From: Bacteroidia bacterium | GTDB lineage: Bacteria; Bacteroidota; Bacteroidia; UBA4408 | Reading direction: 5' to 3' | Assembly: GCA_043778625.1 (NCBI GenBank) | Contig: JAYWFU010000052.1 | Location: 1,197 to 65,196, forward strand | Length of the DNA: 64,000 bases | Part shown: one piece after another, positions 5,099 through 45,021 of the stretch | Position numbering within the stretch: the first letter of the stretch is position 1 | How the letters are laid out: each line of letters starts with the position of its first letter | Notes under the pieces: generated by a model | Databases searched by the model: none | Seen by the model: only the letters and a program-made list of their open reading frames with translations | What the model was told of the DNA's origin: nothing | Made by a program: the position numbers and the translations under genes

Positions 5099-6226
5099 TT
5101 AGTAATTAATTACCTGCTCCTCAATATCCACAGGTATTGCACGAGGTTCGTATTGTTGTGTACGTAGCTGTGGTTCGTAACCTGCCTCACGTATAGCCTC
5201 TTGTATGGTTTTGTACGTAAAGCGGTGTGGCGCACCTGCGGCCGACACCACGTTTTCTTCAATCATAATACTACCAAAATCGTTAGCGCCTGCTTTTAAG
5301 CACAATTGCGCCGTTTGCTTGCCTACCGTTAACCATGAGGCTTGTATGTTGTCAATGTTAGGTAACATCATGCGGCTAAGTGCTATCATGCGTATGTATT
5401 CGTCGGCACTTACGGTGTTTTTAATTCCTTTTAATCGGTTTAATAAAGTACCATCGTCCTGAAACGGCCATGGAATAAAAGCAATGAAGCCTTTGCTACT
5501 AGCAGGTTTTTCGCTTTGTACTTGGCGTATCCATGCCAAATGTTCAAAACGTTCGTAGATAGTTTCTACGTGTCCAAACATCATGGTGGCCGATGTGGTA
5601 ATGTTTAATTTATGTGCTGCGCGCATCACGTCCAGCCACTCCTGCCCTCCGCATTTACCCTTACTTATTAGCCTGCGCACACGATCGTTGAGTATTTCGG
5701 CACCTGGACCAGGTAAGCTATCTAATCCTGCAGCTTGTAGTGCCGCTAATACTTCGGTGTGAGTTTTACCTTCGAGTTTAGCAATGTGTGCCACTTCTGG
5801 CGGGCCCAGCGAATGTAGTTTTAAATTAGGATATAGTTGTTTTAATTCTTTAAACAAACCTACGTAATACGCCAAATTCAAGTCAGGGTGGTGCCCTCCT
5901 TGCAACAATAATTGCTCACCACCGTACTTAAATGTCTCTTCAATTTTTTGTTTGTAGGTTTCAATACTTGTAATATACGCTTCAGTATGCCCTGGTATAC
6001 GGTAAAAATTACAAAATTTACAATTGGCTATACACACGTTGGTAGTGTTTAAATTTCTATCAATAATCCAAGTAACATTTTTAGAATTGTTTTTTTTAAC
6101 ATTACGCAACGTATGCGCAACGTGCATTAAATCCGCCGTTGGGGCGTGTTCAAATAAATATACACCCTCTTCAATAGTTAAAAATTCGAAGTTAAGGGCT
6201 TTAGTGTATAGTTGCGAAAGTTGCAT
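5099..6226 (-). CDS. Radical SAM enzyme of the CofH/MqnC/MqnE family (futalosine-pathway menaquinone biosynthesis)
   Basis: 375 aa. 'CIANCKFCNF' CxxxCxxC radical-SAM cluster motif in the position typical of MqnC/MqnE. Length and C-terminal region match that family. MqnC and MqnE cannot be told apart by eye. Confidence 0.7.
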   Translation of the reverse strand: MQLSQLYTKALNFEFLTIEEGVYLFEHAPTADLMHVAHTLRNVKKNNSKNVTWIIDRNLNTTNVCIANCKFCNFYRIPGHTEAYITSIETYKQKIEETFKYGGEQLLLQGGHHPDLNLAYYVGLFKELKQLYPNLKLHSLGPPEVAHIAKLEGKTHTEVLAALQAAGLDSLPGPGAEILNDRVRRLISKGKCGGQEWLDVMRAAHKLNITTSATMMFGHVETIYERFEHLAWIRQVQSEKPASSKGFIAFIPWPFQDDGTLLNRLKGIKNTVSADEYIRMIALSRMMLPNIDNIQASWLTVGKQTAQLCLKAGANDFGSIMIEENVVSAAGAPHRFTYKTIQEAIREAGYEPQLRTQQYEPRAIPVDIEEQVINY

Positions 6227-6357: not shown

Positions 6358-7437
6358 ATGGAAAACGAACAATTACCCAAAATAGGTATAAGCATAGGCG
6401 ATGTAAACGGAATAGGAATGGAAGTAACCATAAAATCGCTGTTAAATAAAGAAATTAACAAAACGTTTACCCCAATAGTATACGGTAGTAGTAAATTGGC
6501 TACTTTTTTTAAAAAAGAAATGCACCTTAACGATTTTAACTTTGCACTAGCTAAAGACCATAGCCAAATAAATCCTAAGCAAAGTAATATGCTGAATGCT
6601 TGGGATAATGAAATTAAAATAGAGCTCGGACAAGAAACTCCAATAGGTGGCGAGTACGCCATAAAATCGTTGCGTGCAGCGGTGGCCGACCTCAAAGCCA
6701 ACAAAATTGATGCACTGGTAACAGCACCCATTAACAAAAGTAATGTGCAAAGTAGTACGTTTAACTACAAAGGACATACTGATTATTTAGCCGCTGAATT
6801 TAACGTAGGCGATAATTATGCAATGATGCTGGTAAGCGATAAACTACGTGTATCGCTTATTACGGAGCATGTGCCACTATCGGAAGTGAGCAAAAATATT
6901 TCTATCGAAAAAATTGTAGCCAAAATAACAGTGATTAACGAGTCGCTTAAAAAAGATTTTTTAATCCCTCGCCCGCTCATAGCATTACTTGGGCTTAACC
7001 CACATGCGGGCGACAAAGGTCTGCTAGGTAAAGAGGAATTACAAATTATACTACCCGCTATTGAGTTGCTCAAACAAAAAGGAATTATGTGTTTTGGCCC
7101 TTATAGTGCCGATGGTTACTGGGCTAACAGCACTTACACTAAGTTTGACTGTACGGTAGCCATGTATCACGACCAAGGCTTAATACCGTTTAAACAACTT
7201 TGTTTTGATAACGGAGTAAATTTTACGGCAGGCTTACCCATAGTGCGTACATCGCCCGACCACGGCACAGCCTACGACATTGCCCCTAAATTTATTGCTG
7301 ATGAGAACAGTATGCGCCAAGCATTGTACACTGCCGTAGATATAGTTAAAAACAGAGCCCTACACGCCGAATGGACTAGCAATACCTTAGTCCCCAACCC
7401 ACGCTTGAGCCAACGAATAACTAACGCAAGGGAATAA
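6358..7437 (+). CDS. pdxA: 4-hydroxythreonine-4-phosphate dehydrogenase PdxA
   Basis: 359 aa. 'GDVNGIGMEV', 'LGLNPHAGD', 'RTSPDHGTAYDIA' PdxA signatures. Confidence 0.9.
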   Translation: MENEQLPKIGISIGDVNGIGMEVTIKSLLNKEINKTFTPIVYGSSKLATFFKKEMHLNDFNFALAKDHSQINPKQSNMLNAWDNEIKIELGQETPIGGEYAIKSLRAAVADLKANKIDALVTAPINKSNVQSSTFNYKGHTDYLAAEFNVGDNYAMMLVSDKLRVSLITEHVPLSEVSKNISIEKIVAKITVINESLKKDFLIPRPLIALLGLNPHAGDKGLLGKEELQIILPAIELLKQKGIMCFGPYSADGYWANSTYTKFDCTVAMYHDQGLIPFKQLCFDNGVNFTAGLPIVRTSPDHGTAYDIAPKFIADENSMRQALYTAVDIVKNRALHAEWTSNTLVPNPRLSQRITNARE

Positions 7438-7447
7438 GTTTTTAATA

Positions 7448-8674
7448 GTGACACTAAAGCAAAACATACCCTTTCGTTTTTATATTGTAGCGCGCTTATG
7501 TATTATGCTTGCGTTACATATACAAATGACTATTGTGGGCCTACAACTATATTACGAATATGACCGAAGTGCTTACGCATTGGGGTTGTTAGGTTTGTTT
7601 GAAGCTGCACCATTCATCATATTATCCTTGTTTAGTGGCTATATTGCTGATAAATACAACCGTAAAACAATATGGCTATTGGCTATTACTGGTTTTTTGT
7701 TAGCATCGTTTTTTTTATGGGCTACCACTAACCATATTATTAGTTTTTCGTTATTGCAAGGTAAAGAAATACTATACGCTGTTACATTTTTCTTAGGTAT
7801 ACTTAGGGCATTCACAGCATCAGCAGTGCCTCCATTATTATCACAAATAGTATCTCGCGAAAACATTACTGTAGCCTCTACCTGGAGTGCTACCTCGTGG
7901 TACATAGGCGGTATAGCAGGGCCTGCGGTAGGTGCTTATTTATATGGTACTACAGGCGCATCGATTTCGTATCAATTAAACTGTGTATTGTTTGCCATGG
8001 GTATAGTATTAATTATGTGTATAAAAGCTGGTACACAAATAAAGTCCGATAGTCGCGAGCCAATATTTACAAGCATTGCGCAAGGTTTTAAATTTGTACT
8101 AAGTAATAAAATTGTATTAGGCGCTATGTCTTTGGATATGTTAGGCGTATTGTTTGGCGACGCTATTGCACTGCTGCCCGTATTTAGCGATAAGGTATTA
8201 CACCTTGCACCCCAATATTATGGCTACCTGCGCATGGCACCTACCTTGGGTGCGCTTATTACTTCATTGGCATTAACACGTTATTCGCCACTAAACAATA
8301 CGGGTAATAAGTTATTAATATGTATGGCGTGTTTTGGAGCATTAAACATTGTAATGGGATTAAGTACGCAATACTACACCACATTCATTGTGCTGTTTTT
8401 AGCTGGCATGGCTGATAATGTTAGCGTAGTTATACGCCATAGCATAATGCAGTTAATGACTCCTGATGGTATGCGAGGCAGGGTATCAGCCATTAATAGT
8501 ATTTTTATAGGCTCGAGTAACGAAATTGGTGCTTACGAATGCGGGCTAGTGGCTCGTTTAATAGGTTTAGTACCCGCTATAGTGTTTGGTGGTAGCATAA
8601 CCATAGTGGTAGCAGTAGTTATAGCTATTGTAGTACCTACGTTGCGTAGGTTTGAATTAAAAAACCACATTTAA
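7448..8674 (+). CDS. MFS transporter
   Basis: 408 aa, ~12 TM helices, 'GYIADKYNRKT' MFS loop 2-3 motif. Confidence 0.75.
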   Translation: MTLKQNIPFRFYIVARLCIMLALHIQMTIVGLQLYYEYDRSAYALGLLGLFEAAPFIILSLFSGYIADKYNRKTIWLLAITGFLLASFFLWATTNHIISFSLLQGKEILYAVTFFLGILRAFTASAVPPLLSQIVSRENITVASTWSATSWYIGGIAGPAVGAYLYGTTGASISYQLNCVLFAMGIVLIMCIKAGTQIKSDSREPIFTSIAQGFKFVLSNKIVLGAMSLDMLGVLFGDAIALLPVFSDKVLHLAPQYYGYLRMAPTLGALITSLALTRYSPLNNTGNKLLICMACFGALNIVMGLSTQYYTTFIVLFLAGMADNVSVVIRHSIMQLMTPDGMRGRVSAINSIFIGSSNEIGAYECGLVARLIGLVPAIVFGGSITIVVAVVIAIVVPTLRRFELKNHI

Positions 8675-24411: not shown

Positions 24412-24602
24412 AATAAAATATAATAGAAATTCTGAAGTGAAAAAAACAAATGTGCAAAAAACAATTTACTAATTTTTAAAATTGTAAATTATATGCTTAA
24501 AATTACAATTGTGAATAAGTAACCCAATAAATTACTAGCTATTACTAACTCAAATTAAAAAACACATTAAATTTGCGTTTAATAATAAACACGAAGTAAC
24601 TA

Positions 24603-24974
24603 ATGCAAAACATATTTATAGCCTCTACTTCTTTAACACCTCGCATTGTATTAAACAGCAATACATTGGAGTTTTCGGTATCGGGGAAGTCATGCCCAGA
24701 AGATGGCTTAACCTATTATAAATTCGTAACCGATTATATTGAGACTATTAAGCTATCGGAGATTGAAAATTTTACCTTTAAATTTGATTTAGAGTATGCC
24801 AATACCTCATCAGCAAAAGCATTTGTAAATATAATTTACAAAATGCAAGAGCTTAACAACCCTAGTGTTATATGGATGTACGAGCAAGACGATGACGAAA
24901 TACTTGAATTAGGTACGGATATATCTACCATTGTAAATGTTCCGTTTACGTTTATTATTAAAAAAAATCAATAA
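24603..24974 (+). CDS. DUF1987 (SiaC-like) partner-switch regulatory protein
   Basis: 123 aa. 'TPRIVLNSNTLEFSVSGKSCPED' and 'LEYANTSSAKAF' match the DUF1987/SiaC pattern, including the NTSS Thr-containing loop. Confidence 0.6.
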   Translation: MQNIFIASTSLTPRIVLNSNTLEFSVSGKSCPEDGLTYYKFVTDYIETIKLSEIENFTFKFDLEYANTSSAKAFVNIIYKMQELNNPSVIWMYEQDDDEILELGTDISTIVNVPFTFIIKKNQ

Positions 24975-24997
24975 CTCACAATTTAAACAAAAAAAAC

Positions 24998-25408
24998 ATG
25001 TATCCAGCAGAAATGGTATTACCAATGAAAGCCGAGCTTACTCAAGCTGGTTTCGAAGATTTAACAACTCCAGCACAAGTTGATGCTGCCATAGCAAGCC
25101 CAGGCACAGTGCTTGTGGTTGTAAACTCAGTGTGTGGTTGCGCTGCAGGCGCAGCTCGCCCAGGTGTAAAAGCAAGCCTCGACAACGCCAAAAAACCAAT
25201 GAAAATTACTACTGTATTTGCAGGATTTGATAGCGATGCTGTTGCTCAAGCACGTACGCATTTTGCACCATTCCCGCCATCATCGCCATGTGTAGCATTG
25301 TTCAAAGATGGTAAATTACAACACTTTATTGAGCGTCACAATATTGAGGGTCGCTCGGCAGCTATGATTGCTGAACATCTAAAAGCAGCCTACGACGAAT
25401 TTTGTTAA
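24998..25408 (+). CDS. Bacilliredoxin-like protein (YphP/YqiW, DUF1094, BrxA/BrxB family)
   Basis: 136 aa. Near-identical architecture to B. subtilis YphP: 'VVPMKAELTQAGFEDLTT', redox 'NSVCGCAAG', 'PSSPCVALFKDGKLQHFIERHNIEG'. Confidence 0.8.
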   Translation: MYPAEMVLPMKAELTQAGFEDLTTPAQVDAAIASPGTVLVVVNSVCGCAAGAARPGVKASLDNAKKPMKITTVFAGFDSDAVAQARTHFAPFPPSSPCVALFKDGKLQHFIERHNIEGRSAAMIAEHLKAAYDEFC

Positions 25409-25436
25409 TTTGAGTCTTCACACTCCACAAATCAAA

Positions 25437-25470
25437 GCGTTACATTATTAGTTAATGTAGCGCTTTTTTT
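25437..25470 (+). terminator. Rho-independent terminator after the bacilliredoxin-like gene
   Basis: gcgttacatta / taatgtagcgc stem (one G·U) followed by TTTTTTT. Confidence 0.65.
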
Positions 25471-25549
25471 ATAATTAAAAACTGACAATACGTTTTAGCA
25501 CCAAAAAATAAACGTACATTTGAATTTATTAAAATTAAAGAAATTTATT

Positions 25550-26362
25550 ATGCTTAAAAATTTACTATCATTAGTTATTGTATCGTTAATAGTAACAACC
25601 GTATTTGCTCAAAAAGGTAAATTAGTTAAAACAAGTAGTGAAGACGTGTCACTATTAAAGTTATCGTTTCAAAACGGTAACTGGAACGAAGTAGATCGAT
25701 TATTTGCTGCAAACACAAAAACTACTGACAGTACCTTTATAGCATTGCAAAGTGCTTACAACATAATGAACGATAGTTTAAAAAATAAATATACCTATAT
25801 AACCAATAAACAAAAACCTAAGTGCATAAGTATTAACGGTGCCGAATCAGTTGACCCTAGAAACCCTAATGTTACCTACGTGTGGACAATGCCCAACGGC
25901 GAAGAAAAAGAAGGAACGATAATAACACATTGCTTTGCAGATACCGGAATTCAGAGAGTAAAACTAACGTTTAAAGACAATGGTAGCGACATGAAATTTA
26001 TTGATGATACTGTACTTACCATACACATACAAATACCCCCTGCAAATGTTACAGGGGGTAATATACAAGGCGTAAACACTACTAAACAGTATGAGGCCAA
26101 TAGCGTGTATGGCAACGATGCTGAATACGTGTGGGATACTAAAGATGATAAATATTACACTGGCAAAATTGCCAAAATTAAGTACGAGCGTGAGGGAGTG
26201 TACCGTTTAACTTGTTATATTAAAAATAAAATTAATCCCGCTAGTCCAATATTAGTAGTGGAACAAAAAGTAGCTGTTACACGCAGCTATGTACGAGGAA
26301 GTACTATTGTAAGTACCGTAAACGAACACTATCAAGAAAAAACGGGTACTGTAACTAAATAA
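25550..26362 (+). CDS. Secreted protein with PKD-like Ig fold(s)
   Basis: Start placed at internal Met giving signal peptide 'MLKNLLSLVIVSLIVTTVFAQ'. 'YVWTMPNGEEKEGTIITHCFADTGIQRVKLTFKDNGS' resembles a PKD domain. The printed sequence and the ORF track may be offset by 1 nt here. Confidence 0.5.
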   Translation: MLKNLLSLVIVSLIVTTVFAQKGKLVKTSSEDVSLLKLSFQNGNWNEVDRLFAANTKTTDSTFIALQSAYNIMNDSLKNKYTYITNKQKPKCISINGAESVDPRNPNVTYVWTMPNGEEKEGTIITHCFADTGIQRVKLTFKDNGSDMKFIDDTVLTIHIQIPPANVTGGNIQGVNTTKQYEANSVYGNDAEYVWDTKDDKYYTGKIAKIKYEREGVYRLTCYIKNKINPASPILVVEQKVAVTRSYVRGSTIVSTVNEHYQEKTGTVTK

Positions 26363-26395
26363 GTAACCCTACTAATTAGTTAGCTAAACATAATA

Positions 26396-28228
26396 ATGTA
26401 CTCTTTTTTATCAATATTGCGTAATACCTTTGCATTCGTTGTTGATTATGAAGGCAAAGTAATTGGTTATAGCAATTGGTTTAGTACACAAGGCATAGTG
26501 TTAAATCAACAAAGCCATTTAAACAACTTTGTTATTGATTTTAACGCCACATCACTAACTAACTTAATAAGTGAAAACAAACCTTATGTTATTGACTTCT
26601 TTGTTAAAAAAAAACATAAGTTTTTTGAACTAACCTGCGAGGTTATTGATAGTAAAAGTTACTTACTGTTAGGGAACGACGTTACCCAATTAAAATCAAC
26701 TTTACAGGAGCTTAATTTTGTAAGTAATATATCGGAGTTAAATGTTACTCGTTTGCACAAAACATTATTGCAATTAGAAATATCAAAAACTACCTTGTTA
26801 GAAAGTAAATTATCAAAGGAACAAATGATGGCACACATGAGCCACGAGGTACGCTCGCCATTAAATGTAATACACGGTTTTACTGAATTATTAGCAGATA
26901 CTAAGTTAACTAACGAGCAAACGGAGTATGTAAATACAATAAAATTTGCAAACGAAAATTTAATAAATTTAGCCAATAGTATCCTTAATTTTTCGAAGCT
27001 AGAAGCTGGTAAATACAACGTTAACAAATCAAAGGTAAATGTAGCTGTACTTATTAATAAGAGTATTAACGCCTTTAAAATAAAGGCACAAGAAAAATCA
27101 ATAGCAATAACTCTTAACAATACCCTTACTACTGATAAATTATATTGGATTGATGTAACTCATTATTCTCAAATAATAATTAATTTATTAAGTAATGCTA
27201 TAAAATTTACGCCACAAGGTACTATTACAGTAACTGTAAGTTATAGTAATAACGAGTTAATAACGCAAGTAAAAGATAGTGGTATAGGCATACCTAAAGC
27301 ACACCAACAAAGTGTGTTTAATACCTTTGAGCAAGTACCCAACTCACCTTACAACACGCTAGGTACAGGCTTAGGCCTAACTATTGTTAAGCAATTGGTA
27401 ACTCTCAATAACGGTACTATTGTGCTAAACAGCTCCCCAAATAAAGGCACTGCATTTACGGTAACACTACCTACTACTGAGGTTACAGCTACAGTTACTA
27501 CAGCTAGTAATACACAACTATCTCACGATTTAAGTAATTATACTATTTTGGTAGCCGAAGATCAGGTGCTTAATCAAACCTTAATACGTAAAATTCTTAC
27601 TAAGGCCAAAGCAACAGTAACTGTTGTAAATAATGGTAAGGAAGCGCTAGATGCAATTATTCAAAATAAAACACATTATAACTTAGTGTTACTAGACATA
27701 AACATGCCTGTACTCAACGGTATTATTACTACCGAAAACTTACGTAATAAATTAAATTATTACGCTCCCATTATTTGCCTAACAGCTGATGCAAACCCTG
27801 CTACTTATACTCAAGTAATGATTGCTGGCGGCAATGGCGTTATTACTAAGCCGTTTGATGTTAATGATTTAATTCACCTCATTACAACTCAAACGGAGTA
27901 TAAAATATCGTTTGACTACTTTGATAATTTGGCAGAAAAAGATATTGATTTTCGTAATGAATTAATTGATAATTGCATAACATCTATTAAAACTGACGCA
28001 ATAGCATTGGCTAATACTTATGCTAGTAATCAACACAAAAAAGCAATAGACTTAATTCATAATTTAAAAGGTACAACTGCAATGTTTTATTGTAGTACAT
28101 TTAACCACGAAATTACAAGTGTTAATACTATTATTAACGAAAGAGAACTTACTAAGGAAGAACACTTTTCATTTTTAGAAAAAACGAATTCTTTTATTTA
28201 CAGCGTACTACACAATTTTAAAAATTAA
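26396..28228 (+). CDS. Cytoplasmic hybrid sensor histidine kinase (PAS-like N-term, HisKA, HATPase_c, REC, Hpt)
   Basis: 610 aa with no TM segments. H-box 'MSHEVRSPLN', G-box 'GTGLGLTIVKQLV', REC 'ILVAEDQ...LLDINMPVLNG', C-terminal 'HNLKGTTAMF' Hpt-like HxxKG. Confidence 0.85.
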   Translation: MYSFLSILRNTFAFVVDYEGKVIGYSNWFSTQGIVLNQQSHLNNFVIDFNATSLTNLISENKPYVIDFFVKKKHKFFELTCEVIDSKSYLLLGNDVTQLKSTLQELNFVSNISELNVTRLHKTLLQLEISKTTLLESKLSKEQMMAHMSHEVRSPLNVIHGFTELLADTKLTNEQTEYVNTIKFANENLINLANSILNFSKLEAGKYNVNKSKVNVAVLINKSINAFKIKAQEKSIAITLNNTLTTDKLYWIDVTHYSQIIINLLSNAIKFTPQGTITVTVSYSNNELITQVKDSGIGIPKAHQQSVFNTFEQVPNSPYNTLGTGLGLTIVKQLVTLNNGTIVLNSSPNKGTAFTVTLPTTEVTATVTTASNTQLSHDLSNYTILVAEDQVLNQTLIRKILTKAKATVTVVNNGKEALDAIIQNKTHYNLVLLDINMPVLNGIITTENLRNKLNYYAPIICLTADANPATYTQVMIAGGNGVITKPFDVNDLIHLITTQTEYKISFDYFDNLAEKDIDFRNELIDNCITSIKTDAIALANTYASNQHKKAIDLIHNLKGTTAMFYCSTFNHEITSVNTIINERELTKEEHFSFLEKTNSFIYSVLHNFKN

Positions 28229-28235
28229 CCTACTC

Positions 28236-29201
28236 ATGAAACATTATTTATTTTTTTGTTTACTGCTTTTTTCAGCAATTACTGCTGTAGTAGCTCAGCC
28301 TATTCCGTCAAAATATAATAATATTGAGTTTTTGCAAACATTTGGCAATAAAGCTTCTGCTGCTTGGGGCGATGATGATTATGTGCAGACAAATTTTGTA
28401 GCTGTACCACTAGATTACAAGCAGCCACTTTACATACGTATATTTGATGCGAATTGTGGTGGTGCGCACGACCAAATAAATGGCACATATAACACCAAAA
28501 CAAAATTTACCGTGTATGGCGGCAACGGGGCGTATAGCAACGAGGACGCACGAAAAATTAACCCTGTTAATAATTATGATAGTGGAGTACTATTATATAC
28601 CAAAGTGTTTGATAATTCGCCTGAATTTGATAATAACTGGTTTACTTTTGGGCCAATAAACCCAAGCGAGGGCGAGTTTGACAAAGAATTAAATGCGCAT
28701 GTGTTTAAAATTATAACTGAGGGTATATCAGGCGACGATGGTAATATGTATAATTATTACATTAGTACTAGTGGTACTGATAATAAACCTATTGAGGGAC
28801 TAAATACTTTTGCTTATGAAATTAGTTTTAGAATGCAACCTAGTGCCGAACAAAAACAAATACATATTTACCCATTTGTAGATAAACAAGTAGTAAGTAT
28901 TACGCAAAACAATTTTGATTTTGATAACCTAGGTTTTGTACGTTTAACAAGCGTTGCCAAAAAAGTAAATATTCAAGAGGCATCGTTAGATGGTACTTGG
29001 GCCAAAACATTAGCCAAAATAACTGAAGCCGAATTAAATACATCGCTAGATTATTGTATTGTAAACACGAGTACTAAAACTAACGATGCCACATTGTACT
29101 TTGTAAACCAATATGGCAAAGCCATTCCGTTTTTTACTACACCTATTGGTGGACTACCTAAATACAAATACAAAATTAATATAAGCTACGATGTGGAATA
29201 A
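28236..29201 (+). CDS. Secreted hypothetical protein
   Basis: 321 aa. Signal peptide 'MKHYLFFCLLLFSAITAVVAQ'. No recognisable catalytic motifs. Tight spacing (8 nt) to upstream HK. Confidence 0.55.
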   Translation: MKHYLFFCLLLFSAITAVVAQPIPSKYNNIEFLQTFGNKASAAWGDDDYVQTNFVAVPLDYKQPLYIRIFDANCGGAHDQINGTYNTKTKFTVYGGNGAYSNEDARKINPVNNYDSGVLLYTKVFDNSPEFDNNWFTFGPINPSEGEFDKELNAHVFKIITEGISGDDGNMYNYYISTSGTDNKPIEGLNTFAYEISFRMQPSAEQKQIHIYPFVDKQVVSITQNNFDFDNLGFVRLTSVAKKVNIQEASLDGTWAKTLAKITEAELNTSLDYCIVNTSTKTNDATLYFVNQYGKAIPFFTTPIGGLPKYKYKINISYDVE

Positions 29202-32200
29202 TATATATATAGTTAACTATGTATATATTACCATACTATCAGTACTTGCAACAGTAAGTACTACTACAGCACAACTTGTTAATATAAAACAATTTAATAC
29301 CGAAACAGTATTAAACCAACGGTATGTATACCATTTTTCGCAATTGCCTAATCGTTCAATAGTAATGAGTACCAACGAAGGATTAGTGCTATACGATGGC
29401 AATAAATTTATCAACTACAGTACTAAAAACGGATTAGCCAATGATTTTGCAACCTGCCACGTAACCGACAAACAGGGCAATACGTGGGTAGGGCATTATC
29501 AAAACGGGGTGTCGTTAATTAACAACAAAGGCATTGCAACAAAACTACTTGCTACTGAATTAGCCTCTACCAAAGTAAGTGGCATTTATGTGCATTATAC
29601 TAGTGCAATTAGTTATACTGTGTACGTGTGCACTATGGGCAAAGGGGTGTACTTACTCAATAATTTAGGCCAAGTGGTAAAGCACAACTCTACCGAAAGT
29701 GTTATTTTTAACTGTGAAATAAATAACCACCAACTATTTACAGCATCCGAGCTAGGCATTACAATAACTAATGTAATTAATAATAAAACAATATATACTA
29801 CTGATAGTATTACGGGCAACGAAGTAACTGCAAGCTGCTATATGAAGGGAAGTTGGTACGTAGCATTAAAAAATAATACTATTTGCAAGCTCCAAAACAA
29901 TGCACTAAAACCAATATATCATTACCCTAATCTTGAGGCTAAGTTGGTGCAGTTAGTACCCTTTAATAATCAATTGCTTATTAATACATTTAATAACGGC
30001 GTACTTACGTTAGATATAACTACGCACCTTGCATCAAATTATTATACTAATTACTATGGGTTAAACACTACACTAATACAAAGTGTATTTGTTGATGACG
30101 AAAATAGTGTATGGCTTGGCAGCTATGGTAGTGGGGCAATACAACTACTCCAACAACAATTTACTAATTATACCACTACTACTACTACTCAATTAACAAG
30201 TATTAATGCCATTGTAAAAAACGAAACGGACAAAACAGTTTTTATAGCAAGTAATACCACACTGCTAAAGTACAACGAGGATATTAATACACTAAAAAAC
30301 AAACTAGAATTAAACGATAAAATAACCTGTCTTGCCCAACAAAATGATACTTTGTGGATAGGTACCGAGAACAAAGGCGTTTATCTATACCGCATAGCTA
30401 CACATTTGCTTAGTTCGTTTAATACATTGTACCAGTTGCCATTACAACAAGTTAACGCTATTAAACAGTACGGCAAGCAGATGTACATAGCCACTAACAA
30501 TGGCTTACATGTGTATAACCTTTATAGTAAACATATTAAAACATTTACCACTAAAGAAGGCTTACTACACAATAATATTTACACTATTTGCATCGACAAA
30601 TTAGGGCGTATATGGTTTGCGGCACATGGCGCAGGTATTTTTTATTTAAAAGACAAAGAGTTTGTAGTATTTAAAGATGTAGAAGGACTAAATTTATTTA
30701 ACATAAATTCAATAACGGCTGATGATAACAATACCCTGTGGATAGCTACAGAGGGCGATGGCGTGTTTAAGTACGAACGTAATAAATTTACAAACTACCG
30801 CACTGCTAACGGACTATTAAGCAACTATTGCTACGGCATAACTACTGATGGCAAAGGAGGGGTGTGGGTAATGAATAAAAATGGCTTGAGCTATAAAAAA
30901 AGTAACCAAAAATATTTTACTACGTTGCAAACTAACGATGGTGTATTGGTTAACAACTTTAATTTAAATGCATTATTAAACTACAAAAATGAAGAGCTGT
31001 TTTTTGGTGGCGAAAACGGAATGGTGCACTATTCGTTCACAAAATCAAAACTATTGTTTACTCCGCCCACCTTACAATTGTATAATGTATTAATTAACGG
31101 TGTACCCACCGCTATAACAAACAATAATTTACAACTACCTTATGATAAATATGACGTTGTTATTAATTATAATGCCACTACATTTTTACACCACGAAAAA
31201 GTACGTTACAGATATATGCTCAAAGGGCTCGAAACTAAATGGAATGAAAATAGTAGCGGTACATCAAGCAATTATCCGCACTTAACTGATGGTACCTATA
31301 CTTACGAATTGTATGCCACGAACGTGGATGGAATTGAAACAGTAGTGCCCATAACTTTTACCTTAATTATTGACAAGCCTTTTTACAAAAAATGGTGGAC
31401 CTATGTTTTATTAGCCTTAATGATTGTAATAGCAACTCAACTTTTTATAAAATATAAATTAAAAAAACTAACTGACGAACGCATCAAACTAAAAGCCTTA
31501 ATTGAAAAACGTACAGGACAATTACGTAATGAAAAAAATAATTTAGAAACTGCAAAACAACAGCTCGAAATAATTAATAACGACATGACTGATTCTATTA
31601 ATTATGCTAAACTAATACAAGATGCTATATTGCCTAAGTCTGATAAAATAAAACAAACGTTTCCTAATTACTTTGTGTTTTATGCACCTAGAGATATTGT
31701 AAGTGGCGATTTTTATTTTCATACCCGCAAATTCAATAAAACAATATTTATAGTAGGCGATTGTACTGGGCATGGTGTGCCTGGTGGCTTTATGAGTATG
31801 ATAAGTAATACATTAATTAATAAAATAATAAACGATATTATTCAAGAGCCAATTAATCCAGCTGAGATTATAACGGAACTGCAACACAATATTGTGAAAG
31901 AATTAAATCAGCAGGATGCAGAAACCTCATCGCGCGACGGCCTAGATTTAGTAATATGTATCATTGACGACACTACGCATGAATTGCACATTAGTGGAGC
32001 TGGCAGACCTGTGTATCACGTAAGTAATGGTATATTAACTGAGTATAAAGGATCTGCGTTTGGTGTGGGAGGCTACGATGCTGGGGTTAAAAAAGAATAT
32101 CCACATTATGTAGTTAACTATACCATCGGCGATTTTGTGTACATGTGTAGCGATGGATACGCTGACCAATTTGGTGGTGCTGCAAAACGAAAATTTATGA

Positions 32201-32343
32201 GCAAACAACTTAAAGCACTATTTGAAACTAATGCCCACCTACCAGCAGCACAACAACAGCAAATAATTAAAGATACATTTTATAACTGGAAAAATACATT
32301 ACAACAAATTGACGATGTTATTGTACTAGGTCTTGGATTGTAA
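29191..32343 (+). CDS. Membrane sensor phosphatase: periplasmic two-component-regulator beta-propeller + Y_Y_Y domain, single TM, coiled coil, cytoplasmic PP2C/SpoIIE-type Ser/Thr phosphatase
   Basis: 1050 aa. Repeated propeller blades ('...WIGT/WFA...GL..Y'). Y_Y_Y 'YRYMLKGLETKWNENSSG...GTYTYELYATN'. TM 'WWTYVLLALMIVIATQLFI'. PP2C motifs 'VSGDFYF', 'IVGDCTGHGVPGGF', 'DGLDLVICIID', 'CSDGYADQFGG'. Confidence 0.8.
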   Translation: MWNNIYIVNYVYITILSVLATVSTTTAQLVNIKQFNTETVLNQRYVYHFSQLPNRSIVMSTNEGLVLYDGNKFINYSTKNGLANDFATCHVTDKQGNTWVGHYQNGVSLINNKGIATKLLATELASTKVSGIYVHYTSAISYTVYVCTMGKGVYLLNNLGQVVKHNSTESVIFNCEINNHQLFTASELGITITNVINNKTIYTTDSITGNEVTASCYMKGSWYVALKNNTICKLQNNALKPIYHYPNLEAKLVQLVPFNNQLLINTFNNGVLTLDITTHLASNYYTNYYGLNTTLIQSVFVDDENSVWLGSYGSGAIQLLQQQFTNYTTTTTTQLTSINAIVKNETDKTVFIASNTTLLKYNEDINTLKNKLELNDKITCLAQQNDTLWIGTENKGVYLYRIATHLLSSFNTLYQLPLQQVNAIKQYGKQMYIATNNGLHVYNLYSKHIKTFTTKEGLLHNNIYTICIDKLGRIWFAAHGAGIFYLKDKEFVVFKDVEGLNLFNINSITADDNNTLWIATEGDGVFKYERNKFTNYRTANGLLSNYCYGITTDGKGGVWVMNKNGLSYKKSNQKYFTTLQTNDGVLVNNFNLNALLNYKNEELFFGGENGMVHYSFTKSKLLFTPPTLQLYNVLINGVPTAITNNNLQLPYDKYDVVINYNATTFLHHEKVRYRYMLKGLETKWNENSSGTSSNYPHLTDGTYTYELYATNVDGIETVVPITFTLIIDKPFYKKWWTYVLLALMIVIATQLFIKYKLKKLTDERIKLKALIEKRTGQLRNEKNNLETAKQQLEIINNDMTDSINYAKLIQDAILPKSDKIKQTFPNYFVFYAPRDIVSGDFYFHTRKFNKTIFIVGDCTGHGVPGGFMSMISNTLINKIINDIIQEPINPAEIITELQHNIVKELNQQDAETSSRDGLDLVICIIDDTTHELHISGAGRPVYHVSNGILTEYKGSAFGVGGYDAGVKKEYPHYVVNYTIGDFVYMCSDGYADQFGGAAKRKFMSKQLKALFETNAHLPAAQQQQIIKDTFYNWKNTLQQIDDVIVLGLGL

Positions 32344-34142: not shown

Positions 34143-34532
34143 ATGAAATATTTATTAACGGTTATTATAGCCATAACACTAACAATAACAGGCTATGCAC
34201 AAGATTTACGTAAAAATGGGTCAGTAATTGGAACCATTGAACACAATGGCGACGTGCGTTTGAACGGCAGTATTAAAGGACGTTTTGAGACCAATGGCGC
34301 TATTAGAGTAAACGGAAGCGTCAAAGGGCAAATAGAAACTAATGGTGCTATTCGTAAAAATGGCTCAATAATAGGCTACGTAGAAACCAATGGCGACATT
34401 CGTGTAAACGGTAGTATTGTAGGCCGTATTGAAACCAACGGCGACATACGCAAAAACGGAAGTATAATAGGGTCAGCCCAAGGTGTACGCAAGGAGTACA
34501 CTGCCGTTATGTTCTTTTTCGATTTCTTTTAA
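34143..34532 (+). CDS. Small secreted protein made of ~5.5 tandem 16-aa repeats (…ETNGxIRxNGSxxGxI…)
   Basis: 129 aa. Signal peptide 'MKYLLTVIIAITLTITGYAQ'. Periodic 48-nt repeats visible in DNA. Hydrophobic 'VMFFFDFF' C-terminus. Confidence 0.6.
   Translation: MKYLLTVIIAITLTITGYAQDLRKNGSVIGTIEHNGDVRLNGSIKGRFETNGAIRVNGSVKGQIETNGAIRKNGSIIGYVETNGDIRVNGSIVGRIETNGDIRKNGSIIGSAQGVRKEYTAVMFFFDFF
34212..34476 (+). repeat. Degenerate 48-bp tandem repeat (×~5.5) inside the small secreted protein gene
   Basis: Recurring 'gaaaccaatggcgacattcgtgtaaacggtagtattgtaggccgtatt'-like units. Confidence 0.6.
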
Positions 34533-41267: not shown

Positions 41268-41702
41268 TCACATTCTATCCATATACCAGTTTAATTGTTT
41301 TTGCATTTTTTTAATTTTAAAAATAGTAGTTATGTTTTTTTGTAATCGCACAAAAGCAGTTTCGCTTTTAACCACGTAATCAAACGCATTGTGATGCATA
41401 CAATTAATAGCCACTTCTATTTTATCTTGCGACGATAGCATAATAACAGGTGTGTCTACATTAAACTCTTTTATTTTATCTAATGTTTGTAAGCCATTCA
41501 TTGCATTTTTATCAATACCATCTAAATGATAATCTAATATTATAACATCAGGGTTTTGCGCTAATTCTTTTATGCATAATTCGCCAGTAGCAAAAGTTTT
41601 AATGTCAAAATTAGCATGCTGGAGAAATTCTATTTCTAACGATTTTAAAAGTAGTGCATCATCATCTACCAAAAATAATTTTATTAGGCTGGCATCGTTC
41701 AT
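41268..41702 (-). CDS. Single-domain response regulator (REC)
   Basis: 144 aa. 'FLVDDDALLLK', 'IILDYHLDG', 'IMLSSQ'. Overlaps the HK stop by 4 nt. Confidence 0.8.
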   Translation of the reverse strand: MNDASLIKLFLVDDDALLLKSLEIEFLQHANFDIKTFATGELCIKELAQNPDVIILDYHLDGIDKNAMNGLQTLDKIKEFNVDTPVIMLSSQDKIEVAINCMHHNAFDYVVKSETAFVRLQKNITTIFKIKKMQKQLNWYMDRM

Positions 41703-44434
41703 TTTTTATTTTTTTTAATTGTATTAAACTCTTCCGTTAATTCTTTACAAGCTTGCTGGCATACACTATCTAATTGCATCACCATATCATGTATGCTATC
41801 CGTTTGTTGTTGTGTGCTTGCGTATTCTTGTATTTTTTTTGCCATGGTTTCAAAATCAGCATGTATGCCCACTATCGAAAACGAAGGAATTATTTTATGT
41901 GCTGCTGCTTTTAATGTAGCCCAATCTTTATCCATCAAACTATTTTTCATAGCCGTGAGCAATGGAGGAGTTTGTTCGAGGTATAACGCAATCATTTGCA
42001 TCATCAAATCAGGATTCGATTTTGTGCGTTGCATTAAATAATTCAAATCAATACATTTCTTTATTTCATTTTCTACAGTAACTACTTCTTTATTTTCGTC
42101 AACAAGCTTTACTAAATTAATAATCTTAGTATATAATAATCGTTCATCTACTGGCTTCGCTATATAATCATTCATACCCACGGCTTTGCATTTGGCTACA
42201 TCTACGGTGGTAACATCGGCCGTTAGGGCAATAATAGGAATGTTAGATTTCATTACGGTACGAATATGGTCAGTGGCTTCAAAGCCATTCATTTCAGGCA
42301 TTTGCAAATCCATCAAAATAATATCGTAGGTGTTTACTATTAATTTTTCAACTGCAATTCGTCCATTTGCCGCAATATCACACCCAAACCCAAAATCATC
42401 GAGCAGAGTTTTCATTAATAATTGGTTAAGAGCAATGTCCTCCACCACCAATATTTTTATTGGCTTAACAGCTACATCAGTGGCTATTATGTCGGTAGTT
42501 ACCTCTCCCGTTGTATTCGTTTTTAAAAACGGTAAGGTAACTCTAAACACCGACCCCTCCCCTAATGTACTATTAACGGTTATTGTGCCACCTTGGGGTT
42601 CAACTAATTGTTTTACAATAGCTAAGCCTAAGCCTGTGCCTCCGTACAAACGCGAAGTACCACTGGTAGCCTGCTGAAAATTCTCAAACACGTGTTCCAT
42701 TTTACTCTCCGAAATACCTATGCCGGTATCAGCTACTTCAAATGCAATAACTACCTGCTCATCATCTTGGCTAAGTAAATTAACACTTACGGTTATTTTT
42801 CCTGTATTGGTAAACTTAACAGCATTACTTACTAAGTTTAAAATAATTTGGTGCAATCGCACGGAGTCGCCCACTAATACACTAGGTATGTTAGCGTCGT
42901 AATGTTTAACCAACTGTAAATTTTTTTCCTGAATTTTAAGTTCAAACAAATGTAACATAGCCGCTATTGATGATGCCATTTTAAAAGGCGTTTGTTCAAA
43001 TGTCATTTTTCCAGCATCTACTTTTGCTAAATCTAATATGTCGTTAATCAATACAATTAGGGCGTCGCCACTTACTTTAATAGCTTGTAAATATTCTTTT
43101 TGCTTGGGCGACAACTCCGTTTTTAACACCACTTTAGTAAAACCAATAATAGCATTCATTGGCGTACGAATTTCATGGCTCATATTTGATAAAAACTGTT
43201 GCTTTGCCTTAACTGCTTCCTCAGCTATTTGCGTGGCTAACTCCGCTTTAGTTTTAGCTTCCTCAGCAAATGTAGTGGCTAACTCCGCAAATACTTTTGC
43301 TTCAATTAATTCAGTTTCAAATCGTTTTTGCTCCGTTACATCTCTCGCTGCTGCAAACACGCCTAATACTCTTCCTTTATCATCACGGTAAACCGATCCA
43401 TTATACACTACCTGCGTTAGCTTTCCGTTTTTGTGCCGAATAGTAAGTGGATAATCAGATACCACTCCTTTTTCAAATACTTGCTTGTACACTTCTCTCG
43501 CTTTTAGCGGTTCAGTAAAATAGTCAGCGAAATCAGTACCAATTAATTTTTCGCGTTTTTCGCCTGTAACTTTAACCGACGCTTCATTTACATCGGTAAT
43601 TTTTCCGCCTAGCGATATTGTTATTAATGGATCAGTGGAAGCCTCTATTAAACTACGTACATACTGTGAAGCCTGCTTTTGCGAATTACTAAACGCCTCT
43701 AATTCCTTAGCTTCAATTTCTCGTTTGTATTTTTCTTTATTCTGAAAATCCAACTCTTCATCAGCAATAATTAATTCGGCCGCACGTTTTTCTTTTTCAT
43801 CATTTTGAAACGCCAATTCTTTATTGGCTATAACTAATTCGTTGGCACGCTTTTGTTTTTCTTTATTCTGAAAATCCAACTCTTCGTCAGCAATAATTAA
43901 TTCGGCTGCTCGCTTTTCTTTTTCATCATTTTGAAACGCTAACTCTTTATTGGCTATAACCAATTCATTAGCTCGTTTTTCTTTTTCCTCGTTTTGAAAT
44001 ATAAGTTCCTTATTAGCCGTAGTTAATGCAGTTATGTCCCTATCAATGGTTGCAATACCTATAATTGCACCGTTGTCGTCTTTAATGGGCAGTATGTACA
44101 ATGACACATCAATGCTTACCCCGCTTTTGGTAATGCGCTTAGTTTGATATTGAGTAATGTTATGCCCCGCAATAATTTGTGCCGTTAATTGTGCGTACTC
44201 ATTAATGTTGCTTGCCGGAATAATAAGATTTACGTTTTTGCCAATAATTTCGGCGGCGGTGTAGCCATATATTATTTCGGCACCATTATTCCACGAAGTA
44301 ATAACACCAGCTAGTGTTTTAGTTTTTATGGCTAAATCCGAAAATTCAATAATTAACGACGATAAACTTCCGCTTTTTTCGTAGGCAACTAATCTATCAA
44401 AGTCAGCATTTTGGTTGGCAATTTTATCTATCAT
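41699..44434 (-). CDS. Multi-domain hybrid sensor kinase (PAS domains, repeated coiled-coil linker, HisKA, HATPase_c, REC, Hpt)
   Basis: 911 aa. H-box 'MSHEIRTPMN', 'GGTGLGLAIVKQLV', REC 'ILVVEDIALNQ...LMDLQMPEMNG', C-terminal Hpt 'AHKIIPSFSIVG'. Confidence 0.85.
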   Translation of the reverse strand: MIDKIANQNADFDRLVAYEKSGSLSSLIIEFSDLAIKTKTLAGVITSWNNGAEIIYGYTAAEIIGKNVNLIIPASNINEYAQLTAQIIAGHNITQYQTKRITKSGVSIDVSLYILPIKDDNGAIIGIATIDRDITALTTANKELIFQNEEKEKRANELVIANKELAFQNDEKEKRAAELIIADEELDFQNKEKQKRANELVIANKELAFQNDEKEKRAAELIIADEELDFQNKEKYKREIEAKELEAFSNSQKQASQYVRSLIEASTDPLITISLGGKITDVNEASVKVTGEKREKLIGTDFADYFTEPLKAREVYKQVFEKGVVSDYPLTIRHKNGKLTQVVYNGSVYRDDKGRVLGVFAAARDVTEQKRFETELIEAKVFAELATTFAEEAKTKAELATQIAEEAVKAKQQFLSNMSHEIRTPMNAIIGFTKVVLKTELSPKQKEYLQAIKVSGDALIVLINDILDLAKVDAGKMTFEQTPFKMASSIAAMLHLFELKIQEKNLQLVKHYDANIPSVLVGDSVRLHQIILNLVSNAVKFTNTGKITVSVNLLSQDDEQVVIAFEVADTGIGISESKMEHVFENFQQATSGTSRLYGGTGLGLAIVKQLVEPQGGTITVNSTLGEGSVFRVTLPFLKTNTTGEVTTDIIATDVAVKPIKILVVEDIALNQLLMKTLLDDFGFGCDIAANGRIAVEKLIVNTYDIILMDLQMPEMNGFEATDHIRTVMKSNIPIIALTADVTTVDVAKCKAVGMNDYIAKPVDERLLYTKIINLVKLVDENKEVVTVENEIKKCIDLNYLMQRTKSNPDLMMQMIALYLEQTPPLLTAMKNSLMDKDWATLKAAAHKIIPSFSIVGIHADFETMAKKIQEYASTQQQTDSIHDMVMQLDSVCQQACKELTEEFNTIKKNKK
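43733..43995 (-). repeat. Near-perfect ~132-bp tandem duplication inside the hybrid HK linker region
   Basis: Encodes the duplicated peptide 'KEKRANELVIANKELAFQNDEKEKRAAELIIADEELDFQN'. The two DNA copies differ at only a few positions. Confidence 0.7.
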
Positions 44435-44439
44435 TTAGT

Positions 44440-45021
44440 TTAATTTATGTCGTTATTGCCACCTATATCTTCAATAGGATTTCGGCGTTTATCTTTTAAT
44501 TGCTTAAAGTGAGAAGGTGTTAAGCCTGTAATTTTTTTAAACTGAGTGGACAAATGCGCAACACTACTGTAGTTCATCTTCCAAGCTATTTCGGTTATCG
44601 TTAATTCGTCGTACATAATTAGTTCTTTAATATGCTCCACTTTGTGCATAATTAAAAATTGAGCAATTGTAACACCCTGTACTTCGCTAAATAAATTGGC
44701 TAAGTAAGTGTAATCGTAATTTAGTTTTTCGGCTAAATAATCGGAGAAATTAGTTTTAACTACCTCATCGTTATGATACACCATTTGAGTAATTACACTT
44801 TTAATTTTTTCAATTAAAATAGCTTTTTTATCGTCCATTAACTCTAGCCCTGTATCTACTAAGCCTATTTTCAGTAGCTCGCGTTGCTCATCAGTTATAG
44901 TTTCCATTATTTCTACTTCGCCTAATTCCACTAACATAAAATGCAAACCTAATTTTTTAAGTTCTTCTTTCACCATTATTTTACAACGATTACTTACCAT
45001 ATATTTTATGTATATTTTCAA
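44440..45021 (-). CDS. AraC-family transcriptional regulator
   Basis: 193 aa. C-terminal AraC HTH 'ITEIAWKMNYSSVAHLSTQFKKITGLTPSHF'. Confidence 0.75.
   Translation of the reverse strand: MKIYIKYMVSNRCKIMVKEELKKLGLHFMLVELGEVEIMETITDEQRELLKIGLVDTGLELMDDKKAILIEKIKSVITQMVYHNDEVVKTNFSDYLAEKLNYDYTYLANLFSEVQGVTIAQFLIMHKVEHIKELIMYDELTITEIAWKMNYSSVAHLSTQFKKITGLTPSHFKQLKDKRRNPIEDIGGNNDIN

Follow-up and report, generated by a model that had tools for sequence, protein, structure and literature searches.

A SiaC–bacilliredoxin gene pair beside a putative envelope-sensing operon with a SiaA-type sensor phosphatase in a Bacteroidia bacterium

We analysed a 64,000-nucleotide (nt) stretch of DNA from a Bacteroidia bacterium (GenBank assembly GCA_043778625.1, contig JAYWFU010000052.1, forward-strand positions 1,197 to 65,196), here called the window, and in it a block of six plus-strand genes at 24603-32343. 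These encode, in order, a SiaC-family protein, a bacilliredoxin (Brx), a secreted PKD-domain protein, a hybrid histidine kinase (HK), a secreted protein of 321 amino acids (aa) that we term U321, and a sensor protein ending in a PP2C phosphatase domain (Table 1). A first-pass annotation, made from the letters of the window, had read the block as one candidate phospho-signalling module. The list of open reading frames (ORFs) contains all six genes with exactly the coordinates that it gave, whereas a predicted terminator and the gene order in relatives divide the block into two transcription units. On balance we favour the reading that these units are independent, that the second (unit 2, 25550-32343) is a form, specific to this lineage, of an uncharacterised envelope-sensing operon widespread in Bacteroidota, and that it has a partner-switch output. 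Unit 1 (24603-25408) consists of the SiaC-family phospho-switch protein and the bacilliredoxin and is closed by the putative intrinsic terminator.

Table 1. Features of the six-gene block (window coordinates)
Feature	Position	Strand	Basis or remark
TAAATTTG, match to Bacteroidota -7 promoter consensus TAnnTTTG	24568..24575	+	ends 28 nt before SiaC-like ATG; weak
SiaC-family (DUF1987) protein, 123 aa	24603..24974	+	PF09345; Thr68 in NTSS, codon ACC at 24804-24806
BrxA/BrxB-type bacilliredoxin, 136 aa	24998..25408	+	TIGR04191, PF06491; CGC at residues 46-48
Intrinsic-terminator-like hairpin, 14-bp stem, 5-nt loop, then T7	25434..25476	+	ends SiaC-Brx unit
TACATTTG, second TAnnTTTG match	25515..25522	+	ends 28 nt before PKD-gene ATG 25550; weak
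Secreted PKD-domain protein, family F13	25550..26362	+	270 aa from ATG 25550; 280 aa from TTG 25520
Cytoplasmic hybrid histidine kinase, 610 aa	26396..28228	+	HisKA, HATPase_c, REC; helical C-terminus
U321, secreted 321-aa protein of large unannotated family	28236..29201	+	signal-like N-terminus
Sensor protein, extracytoplasmic part, residues 1-734	29191..31392	+	signal/anchor segment, Reg_prop beta-propeller, Y_Y_Y
Sensor protein, single transmembrane segment, residues 735-753	31393..31449	+	hydrophobicity
Sensor protein, cytoplasmic linker helix and SiaA-type PP2C, residues 777-1050	31519..32340	+	NF038263, 6k4e_A

Within the block the SiaC-like and Brx genes are separated by 23 nt, and a gap of 141 nt precedes the PKD gene when it is read from ATG 25550, the start chosen by the gene callers (111 nt from TTG 25520). 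The following gaps measure 33, 7 and -11 nt, in agreement with the tightly spaced, partly overlapping PKD-HK-U321-PP2C operon described earlier. The terminator-like hairpin starts 26 nt past the Brx stop codon. Its predicted RNA fold has an energy of -17.3 kcal/mol (z = -6.9), and none of 200 shuffled sequences was equally stable.

Conservation of the adjacency between the SiaC-Brx pair and the phosphatase operon had been chosen beforehand as a test of the single-module claim, and it was not kept in the closest relatives outside the lineage of the window. In the locus with the most similar of these phosphatases (L001, on the same contig as L009; PP2C protein 65% identical) the order is topoisomerase-PKD-HK-320-aa protein-PP2C, with no SiaC or Brx gene. 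The metagenome-assembled genome (MAG) GCA_014376525.1 carries SiaC (67% identical) followed by Brx on its contig 122 (L004), where no kinase or phosphatase gene lies within 10 kb, and PKD-HK-U321 on its contig 165 (L008). Sample 3300080850 likewise yielded one contig with the order coaBC-DUF4835-SiaC-Brx-FAD oxidase (L116; SiaC 60% identical) and another on which only the 320-aa protein and the PP2C protein are kept (L002; PP2C 60% identical). At greater distance (L003; PP2C 31% identical) the phosphatase follows a CHU_C protein, PorP/SprF, a PD40/PKD/OmpA protein and a 314-aa protein. An 11-kb contig bearing homologues of the SiaC, U321 and PP2C proteins at 79-88% identity probably comes from a very close relative.

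Because their counterparts lie on separate contigs in relatives, the SiaC-Brx pair and the phosphatase operon appear to be separate modules that are joined only in the lineage of the window. This distribution, the terminator hairpin and the 141-nt gap as opposed to spacings of 33, 7 and -11 nt together form the basis for recognizing two units. The two would be chance neighbours in this lineage, and the six-gene set is a lineage-specific juxtaposition.

In unit 1, the 123-aa protein matched PF09345 (E=1.1e-23; 83.7 bits against a cutoff of 24.5) over model positions 1-118 of 120. It aligned to Pseudomonas aeruginosa SiaC (PDB 6kko_C, E=2.5e-6) with NTSS on NTSS, and on this alignment the threonine of its NTSS loop, residue 68, would be equivalent to T68 of P. 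aeruginosa SiaC. The score against the SiaC equivalog model NF038265 of NCBIfam was 52.1 bits, below the cutoff of 150, and we therefore regard the protein as a family member and not as a functional equivalog. A metagenome pattern scan built on a six-sequence SiaC alignment returned 156 pattern matches and no confirmed relative. The bacilliredoxin matched TIGR04191 (E=2e-58; 196.3 bits against a cutoff of 100) and PF06491 (E=4e-60). For both proteins the first-pass annotation, which had noted a DUF1987 protein with a SiaC-type NTSS loop and a CGC bacilliredoxin, was accurate. Its further suggestion of a thiol-redox input through the bacilliredoxin found no support: of 28 further Brx loci from metagenomes, with Brx 61-78% identical, none had a SiaC-like neighbour, and the SiaC-Brx pairing appears on these sequences to be clade-specific. 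The idea that Brx normally resides in a coaBC-DUF4835 context into which SiaC was inserted was rejected, as that context is absent from the same 28 loci.

The first gene of unit 2 encodes a protein with a PKD domain (Pfam, E=5e-11) behind a signal-like hydrophobic N-terminus. It belongs to family F13; the PKD part of F2, the PD40/PKD (PorE-like) family, is related to F13. In the hybrid HK that follows, the HisKA, HATPase_c and REC domains all scored above their Pfam cutoffs; the motif SHEVRSP begins at residue 149 (H150) and DINMP carries D434, the N-terminal 135 aa match no family, and the protein has no hydrophobic segment. The C-terminus had been called an Hpt domain. Taken in isolation it gave no Pfam Hpt (PF01627) match even at E<=10 and no sequence match to an Hpt protein in the PDB. 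A single-sequence AlphaFold2 (AF2) model of it is helical with a predicted local distance difference test score (pLDDT) of 61, and its structural matches do not include an Hpt before ranks 13-14, with E of about 3; an HNLKG motif at residue 555 is the sole sign in favour of Hpt. Of the soluble HK-REC-Hpt architecture proposed earlier, the kinase, the receiver and the lack of a transmembrane segment thus stood and the Hpt was not confirmed. The HK occupies the position between PKD and U321 only in the close relatives L001/L009 and L008, and it is to judge by this gene order an insertion confined to them. This narrow distribution also counts against its earlier suggested role as the kinase of the switch.

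The 1050-aa sensor protein (29191-32343) combines a Reg_prop beta-propeller (E=5e-18) and a Y_Y_Y domain (E=6e-10) with hydrophobic segments at residues 5-23 and 735-753 and a cytoplasmic PP2C/SpoIIE domain (PF07228; 60.4 bits against a cutoff of 25). Residues 777-1050 aligned to model positions 389-654 of 658 of the NCBIfam SiaA model NF038263 (E=3e-47), and the score of 161 bits falls under the cutoff of 700 since the N-terminal sensor differs. The only PDB match of the phosphatase domain at E<=0.001 was the PP2C domain of P. aeruginosa SiaA (6k4e_A; E=9e-29 over 266 residues). The PP2C motifs read SGDFY838, DCTGHG857, SDGYADQ987 and DDVIVLG1041, and the four Asp-containing motifs are identical in the SiaA alignment. 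Given the SiaA-only structural match and the identical Asp motifs, the domain is likely to be an active phosphatase of the SiaA type. The propeller, Y_Y_Y, transmembrane and PP2C parts named in the first-pass annotation are all present, as are the signal-like N-termini of the two proteins that it called secreted, the PKD-like and the 321-aa protein.

U321 itself matched no Pfam or NCBIfam family. It nevertheless belongs to a large family: more than 1,000 clusters contain proteins 46-55% identical to that of the window, the family occurs in at least 513 species-representative genomes, and an exhaustive profile search collected 714 clusters at the 50% identity level. The AF2 model shows a fold of tandem beta-sandwich domains (pLDDT 85.5). 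Two acidic clusters, GDDD and GDDG, are among its invariant residues, and the C-terminal tail PIGGxPKYKYK is conserved and predicted to be disordered; it could serve as a docking peptide.

We then compared 80 species-level U321 loci. A propeller gene lies directly downstream of U321 in 70 of them, at a median distance of 11 nt, with 59 of 64 gaps measuring 50 nt or less. Directly upstream, 66 of the 80 carry a PKD-containing gene, either of the PD40/PKD family F2 or of the small F13 family found in the window. The output domain of the sensor is a PP2C in 42 loci and a HisKA/HATPase HK in 8, and no output was recognised in 12. About 10 of these 12 sensors are approximately 865 aa long and end 13-32 aa after the last transmembrane segment. 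Propeller/Y_Y_Y proteins of this length and without output were seen in Cytophagales-type genomes at L055:10918-13512 and in L020, L024, L027, L032, L043, L056, L058 and L075. As the output domain varies while U321 stays, U321 probably acts on the periplasmic input side. The fusion of a propeller/Y_Y_Y sensor to PP2C, which had been thought unusual, is carried by at least 26 protein clusters and by the 42 loci just mentioned.

The usual setting of this core is a type IX secretion system (T9SS) cassette. PorP/SprF is encoded in 53 of the 80 loci, in the same operon and upstream of the U321-sensor pair, and cargo with the type-B T9SS signal CHU_C was found in L003 and in representatives of the upstream families F4 (present in 27 of the 80 loci) and F17. 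The core therefore usually ends a T9SS type-B cassette of CHU_C cargo, PorP/SprF and a PD40/PKD protein. Elsewhere on the source contig there are CHU_C proteins, with adjacent Ig_7 and CHU_C genes at L120:11777-13973, approximately 1-3 kb beyond the left end of the window, and a Por_Secre_tail protein lies in the window at 60552-62102; the organism thus has T9SS cargo.

Several loci depart from the common arrangement. Tandem PD40/PKD-U321-PD40/PKD-U321 genes precede a single propeller sensor in L054 and L083, and an Ekhidna genome (NZ_OZ243102.1) has two separate U321-sensor loci (L057 and L058), from which we conclude that the module has been paralogously expanded in some genomes. Of the 80 loci, 22, for the most part labelled Bacteroidales, have a 1,240-aa HAMP histidine kinase of family F6 as the first gene of the operon. 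On the strand opposite to the propeller-PP2C gene and just downstream of it, L021:14118-15460 and 16-17 similar loci, again mostly Bacteroidales, carry conserved genes for a LuxR-type (GerE) regulator and a hemerythrin-domain protein. The regulator, the hemerythrin protein and the HAMP HK could together be a dedicated two-component regulator of the cassette. The recurrent downstream neighbours in Bacteroidales comprise this LuxR-type regulator, hemerythrin, Era/EngA GTPases, an ABC ATPase and a pseudouridine synthase, and include no STAS protein and no kinase. In Imperialibacter (L056) a Brx gene (57% identical) lies right after the propeller-sensor gene on the opposite strand, approximately 2.7 kb downstream of U321; seen in one of the 80 loci, this adjacency is probably a coincidence.

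Domain architectures, examined in the best 150 representative U321 clusters, extend the connection to PKD proteins. In 43 of the 150, an N-terminal U321 is followed by a long C-terminal extension, which consisted of PKD repeats (2 to 15) in all five proteins checked with Pfam, and 36 of the 150 share PKD similarity with the PKD protein of the window. Judged by sequence, these fusions provide a Rosetta-stone link between two genes of the window operon. U321 is placed at the C-terminus in a further 25. Among the 14 of these that were scanned, 6 contained Big_1, Invasin_D3 or TIG domains and 1 a BlaR1-type M56 domain, and 7 had no recognised N-terminal domain. The tip of an invasin-like stalk is the place of the receptor-binding domain in such adhesins. 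The 613-aa protein P0258 joins an N-terminal BlaR1-type Peptidase_M56 transducer to a U321 module at residues 325-609, the spot usual for an extracytoplasmic sensor domain. The predicted fold and these fusions characterise U321 as a putative beta-sandwich binding module that elsewhere is attached to PKD arrays or to the tips of invasin-like stalks.

On the output side, SiaC-like genes were found in operons with U321 and PP2C in two distant lineages. A MAG labelled Chlorobiota (L012) has three tandem SiaC-like genes at 6474-7967, directly upstream of F2-U321-PP2C, of which the middle copy is frameshifted (6883-7086 and 7118-7285). In the same locus, a regulator with REC and LuxR-type parts is encoded in divergent orientation at 5344-6168. 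In L053 the order is cargo-PorP-F2-U321-PP2C-SiaC. The phospho-acceptor position of the SiaC-like copies holds Thr or Ser, and neither locus has a kinase gene beside the SiaC genes, a Brx gene or an HK of the window type. An iterated SiaC hidden Markov model run over the 80 loci found nothing beyond three BLAST hits. The occurrence in two distant lineages, in differing arrangements, makes a SiaC-type substrate plausible, if unproven. Other SiaA-like PP2Cs of Bacteroidota (L117, L118 and L119) have no adjacent SiaC, STAS or kinase gene, so that missing synteny is weak evidence against such a substrate. L117:1035-9134 holds four tandem TPR-PP2C (SpoIIE) paralogues on one strand, and in Microscilla marina (L118) a Y_Y_Y-GAF-PP2C gene stands beside a propeller-PP2C gene; orphan sensor phosphatases seem to be present in Bacteroidota in large arrays.

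Among described systems, SiaABCD of P. aeruginosa (PMC8457831; bioRxiv 10.1101/674879) shares with the window a membrane-anchored sensor with a C-terminal PP2C and a DUF1987/SiaC protein whose NTSS loop has its threonine at position 68. It possesses the SiaB kinase and the SiaD diguanylate cyclase, whereas here neither was found within 82 kb. The propeller/Y_Y_Y sensor is unlike the N-terminal region of SiaA, the SiaC-like gene is in a separate unit from the phosphatase gene with an adjacency that is not conserved, and U321 and the PKD protein have no SiaABCD counterpart. At most, then, the window functions in the manner of a Sia system, without belonging to that group. Hybrid two-component systems (HTCS) of Bacteroides have the same periplasmic Reg_prop and Y_Y_Y domains and single transmembrane segment, and many of the sensor homologues that we found share the HTCS architecture. 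Their output is HK-REC with an AraC-type helix-turn-helix (HTH), whereas the cytoplasmic part of the window sensor is PP2C only. Unlike HTCS, this sensor is also paired with a dedicated secreted U321 and is not embedded in a polysaccharide utilisation locus.

Hybrid HKs associated with a partner-switching PP2C, as in the window, occur in HptB-HsbR-HsbA of P. aeruginosa and RsbK-RsbY-RsbV of Bacillus cereus. In both, a hybrid-HK phosphorelay drives the PP2C partner switch. The phosphoryl group is taken up there by a REC domain at the N-terminus of the PP2C protein, whereas the PP2C of the window has no REC and a periplasmic sensor of its own. Given these precedents (HptB-HsbR-HsbA is mentioned in PMC8457831 and the RsbKY mechanism is treated in PMC9912610), the HK-PP2C pairing is not unprecedented in itself. 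A switch of the RsbU/RsbV/RsbW type relies on a STAS antagonist and an anti-sigma kinase, neither of which was found in the 82 kb covered.

Cassettes of T9SS type-B C-terminal-domain cargo, PorP(SprF) and PorE-like proteins (PMC9143113; PMC12618676) correspond to the PorP/SprF found in 53 of the 80 related loci, in which a PD40/PKD (PorE-like) gene and, where examined, CHU_C cargo stand alongside. The operon of the window has lost the cargo and PorP genes of this cassette and keeps the small PKD protein. The accessible published description of the cassette (PMC9143113) mentions no U321-like gene and no sensor phosphatase, and a bacterial PP2C classification paper contains no mention of propeller, Y_Y_Y, DUF1987 or SiaA. 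The searchable literature gave no description of a PKD-HK-U321-PP2C operon, in line with the earlier statement that no described system was known with this gene set and architecture.

Unit 2 has as its conserved core the PKD protein, U321 and the single-pass propeller/Y_Y_Y sensor. We propose that U321 and the PKD protein are extracytoplasmic, ligand-binding co-sensors of the propeller domain, and in most species they may report on the neighbouring surface complex of T9SS type-B cargo, PorP and PorE-like protein. The PP2C would then dephosphorylate a switch protein of the SiaC or STAS type, phosphorylated by a kinase that would be encoded elsewhere. For the substrate of the PP2C, the best candidate is the neighbouring SiaC-like protein with its Thr68, a tentative assignment to which we give clearly less than even confidence.

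Several observations weigh against this proposal. The terminator is predicted, and transcription may read through it; TAnnTTTG is about as frequent in the window as chance would give (119 matches against 115 expected), so that the two promoter boxes serve as weak corroboration only. Among the 150 representatives, no fusion of U321 with a propeller, PP2C or HK domain occurs. Sequence conservation in U321 (46-55% identity) also far exceeds that in the sensor (25-33%), and the main partner of U321 may be a different one. CHU_C cargo and PorP/SprF genes are absent from the window's operon, for which the T9SS link consequently rests on homology with other loci. A SiaC-like gene lies within 10 kb in 2 of the 80 U321 loci (2 of the 42 with PP2C output), a frequency that is not statistically distinguishable from chance, the background density of SiaC being unknown. 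A kinase of the HATPase_c_2, SiaB or RsbW type was found neither in the block nor in the 64-kb window nor over positions 1-81,688 of the source contig, which is 95,679 nt long. The same regions hold no STAS or GGDEF gene, and the first-pass annotation, which had noted the lack of a SiaB- or RsbW-like kinase and of STAS in the block, can be extended accordingly.

The better conservation of U321 is also what would be expected if it and the PKD protein were adhesin-like binding proteins, secreted or at the surface, that do no more than share expression with the sensor or stand under its control, while the sensor detects an unrelated envelope or environmental signal. That U321 sits on the tips of invasin-like stalks or heads long PKD arrays is typical of adhesins, and its usual neighbours are T9SS type-B surface-protein cassettes. 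Against this stand the adjacency to the sensor in 70 of 80 loci, which spans three output classes and is, with its 11-nt median gap, tighter than simple co-regulation predicts, the lack of a recognisable T9SS C-terminal signal in U321 (Pfam, NCBIfam) and the fusion that puts U321 at the sensor position of a BlaR1-type transducer. We consider this explanation unlikely, albeit one to be taken seriously. It is rather improbable, in our view, that the PP2C acts outside a SiaC or STAS switch, on the hybrid HK or its REC domain or on targets of Hanks-type kinases. PP2Cs are not known to us to remove phospho-His or phospho-Asp, and the HKs that recur in the operons, namely the F6 HAMP-HK of 22 loci and the hybrid HK of the window, are not homologous to one another, although their recurrence as such would suit this possibility. 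So would the 40 of 42 PP2C-type loci without an adjacent SiaC, STAS or anti-sigma-type kinase gene, a lack shared by other SiaA-like PP2Cs of Bacteroidota. In contrast, SiaA, which acts on SiaC (PMC8457831), is the one solved structure related to the domain at E<=0.001.

The conception of all six genes as one phospho-signalling module, with the PP2C acting on the SiaC-like protein, the HK or a distant kinase phosphorylating it and Brx supplying a redox input, has to contend with the terminator between Brx and PKD and with the placement of the two halves on separate contigs in the nearest relatives. We know of no precedent for a HisKA-type kinase that phosphorylates the threonine of SiaC or STAS. 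The shared strand and close spacing, the SiaA-like PP2C and the conserved Thr68 of SiaC agree with a single module, as does the persistence of the SiaC-Brx pair in three lineages with different flanks. The operonic SiaC-like genes of L012 and L053 would do so as well, but these loci have neither Brx nor the window-type HK; moreover, none of the 28 other Brx loci has SiaC and the HK is limited to a narrow clade. We regard this arrangement as very improbable. More general than the six-gene block, and better supported, is the conserved set of three genes, for the PKD protein, U321 and the propeller sensor.

Other genes of the window lie apart from this block. At 34143-34532 (+), a 129-aa signal-peptide protein is built almost wholly from a repeated NGS-I/V-x-G-x-I/V-E-T-NG-x-IR motif, with bactofilin and the '5-fold beta-flower' family as its weak matches. 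A second signalling cluster at 41268-45021 (-) comprises an AraC-type HTH gene (44440-45021), a gene for a PAS-PAS-HisKA-HATPase-REC hybrid kinase (41699-44434) and one for a stand-alone REC protein (41268-41702). The 1041-aa protein at 55561-58686 (+), preceded by a 560-nt intergenic gap, contains N6_Mtase, Eco57I/MmeI-type methylase and Type_ISP_C specificity domains and would, on its domain content, be a restriction-modification enzyme made as a single polypeptide. Scans for Rfam families and for tRNA genes gave no match in the window.

The bacilliredoxin and the hybrid HK are lineage-specific neighbours, and the focus shifts from the six-gene block to the U321-sensor pair. Sensor-PP2Cs are numerous in Bacteroidota, and the searchable open-access literature assigns none of them a substrate or a signal. 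U321 is a widespread and specific partner, and as such a concrete candidate for the input side of one class of these phosphatases. The recurrent link between the sensor and T9SS type-B cassettes points to surveillance or regulation of surface-protein display, and the SiaA-like catalytic domain, together with the occasional operonic SiaC-like genes, nominates SiaC-family proteins as the output. In its widest and doubtful form, a speculation to which we give little weight, U321, the PKD protein and the propeller would constitute an unrecognised envelope-sensing module of at least 500 Bacteroidota species, normally set on T9SS type-B cassettes and provided with swappable outputs, and its SiaA-type PP2Cs would converge with the orphan sensor-PP2Cs on SiaC-family threonine phospho-switches that, with no diguanylate cyclase encoded nearby, would need a target other than a SiaD-type cyclase.

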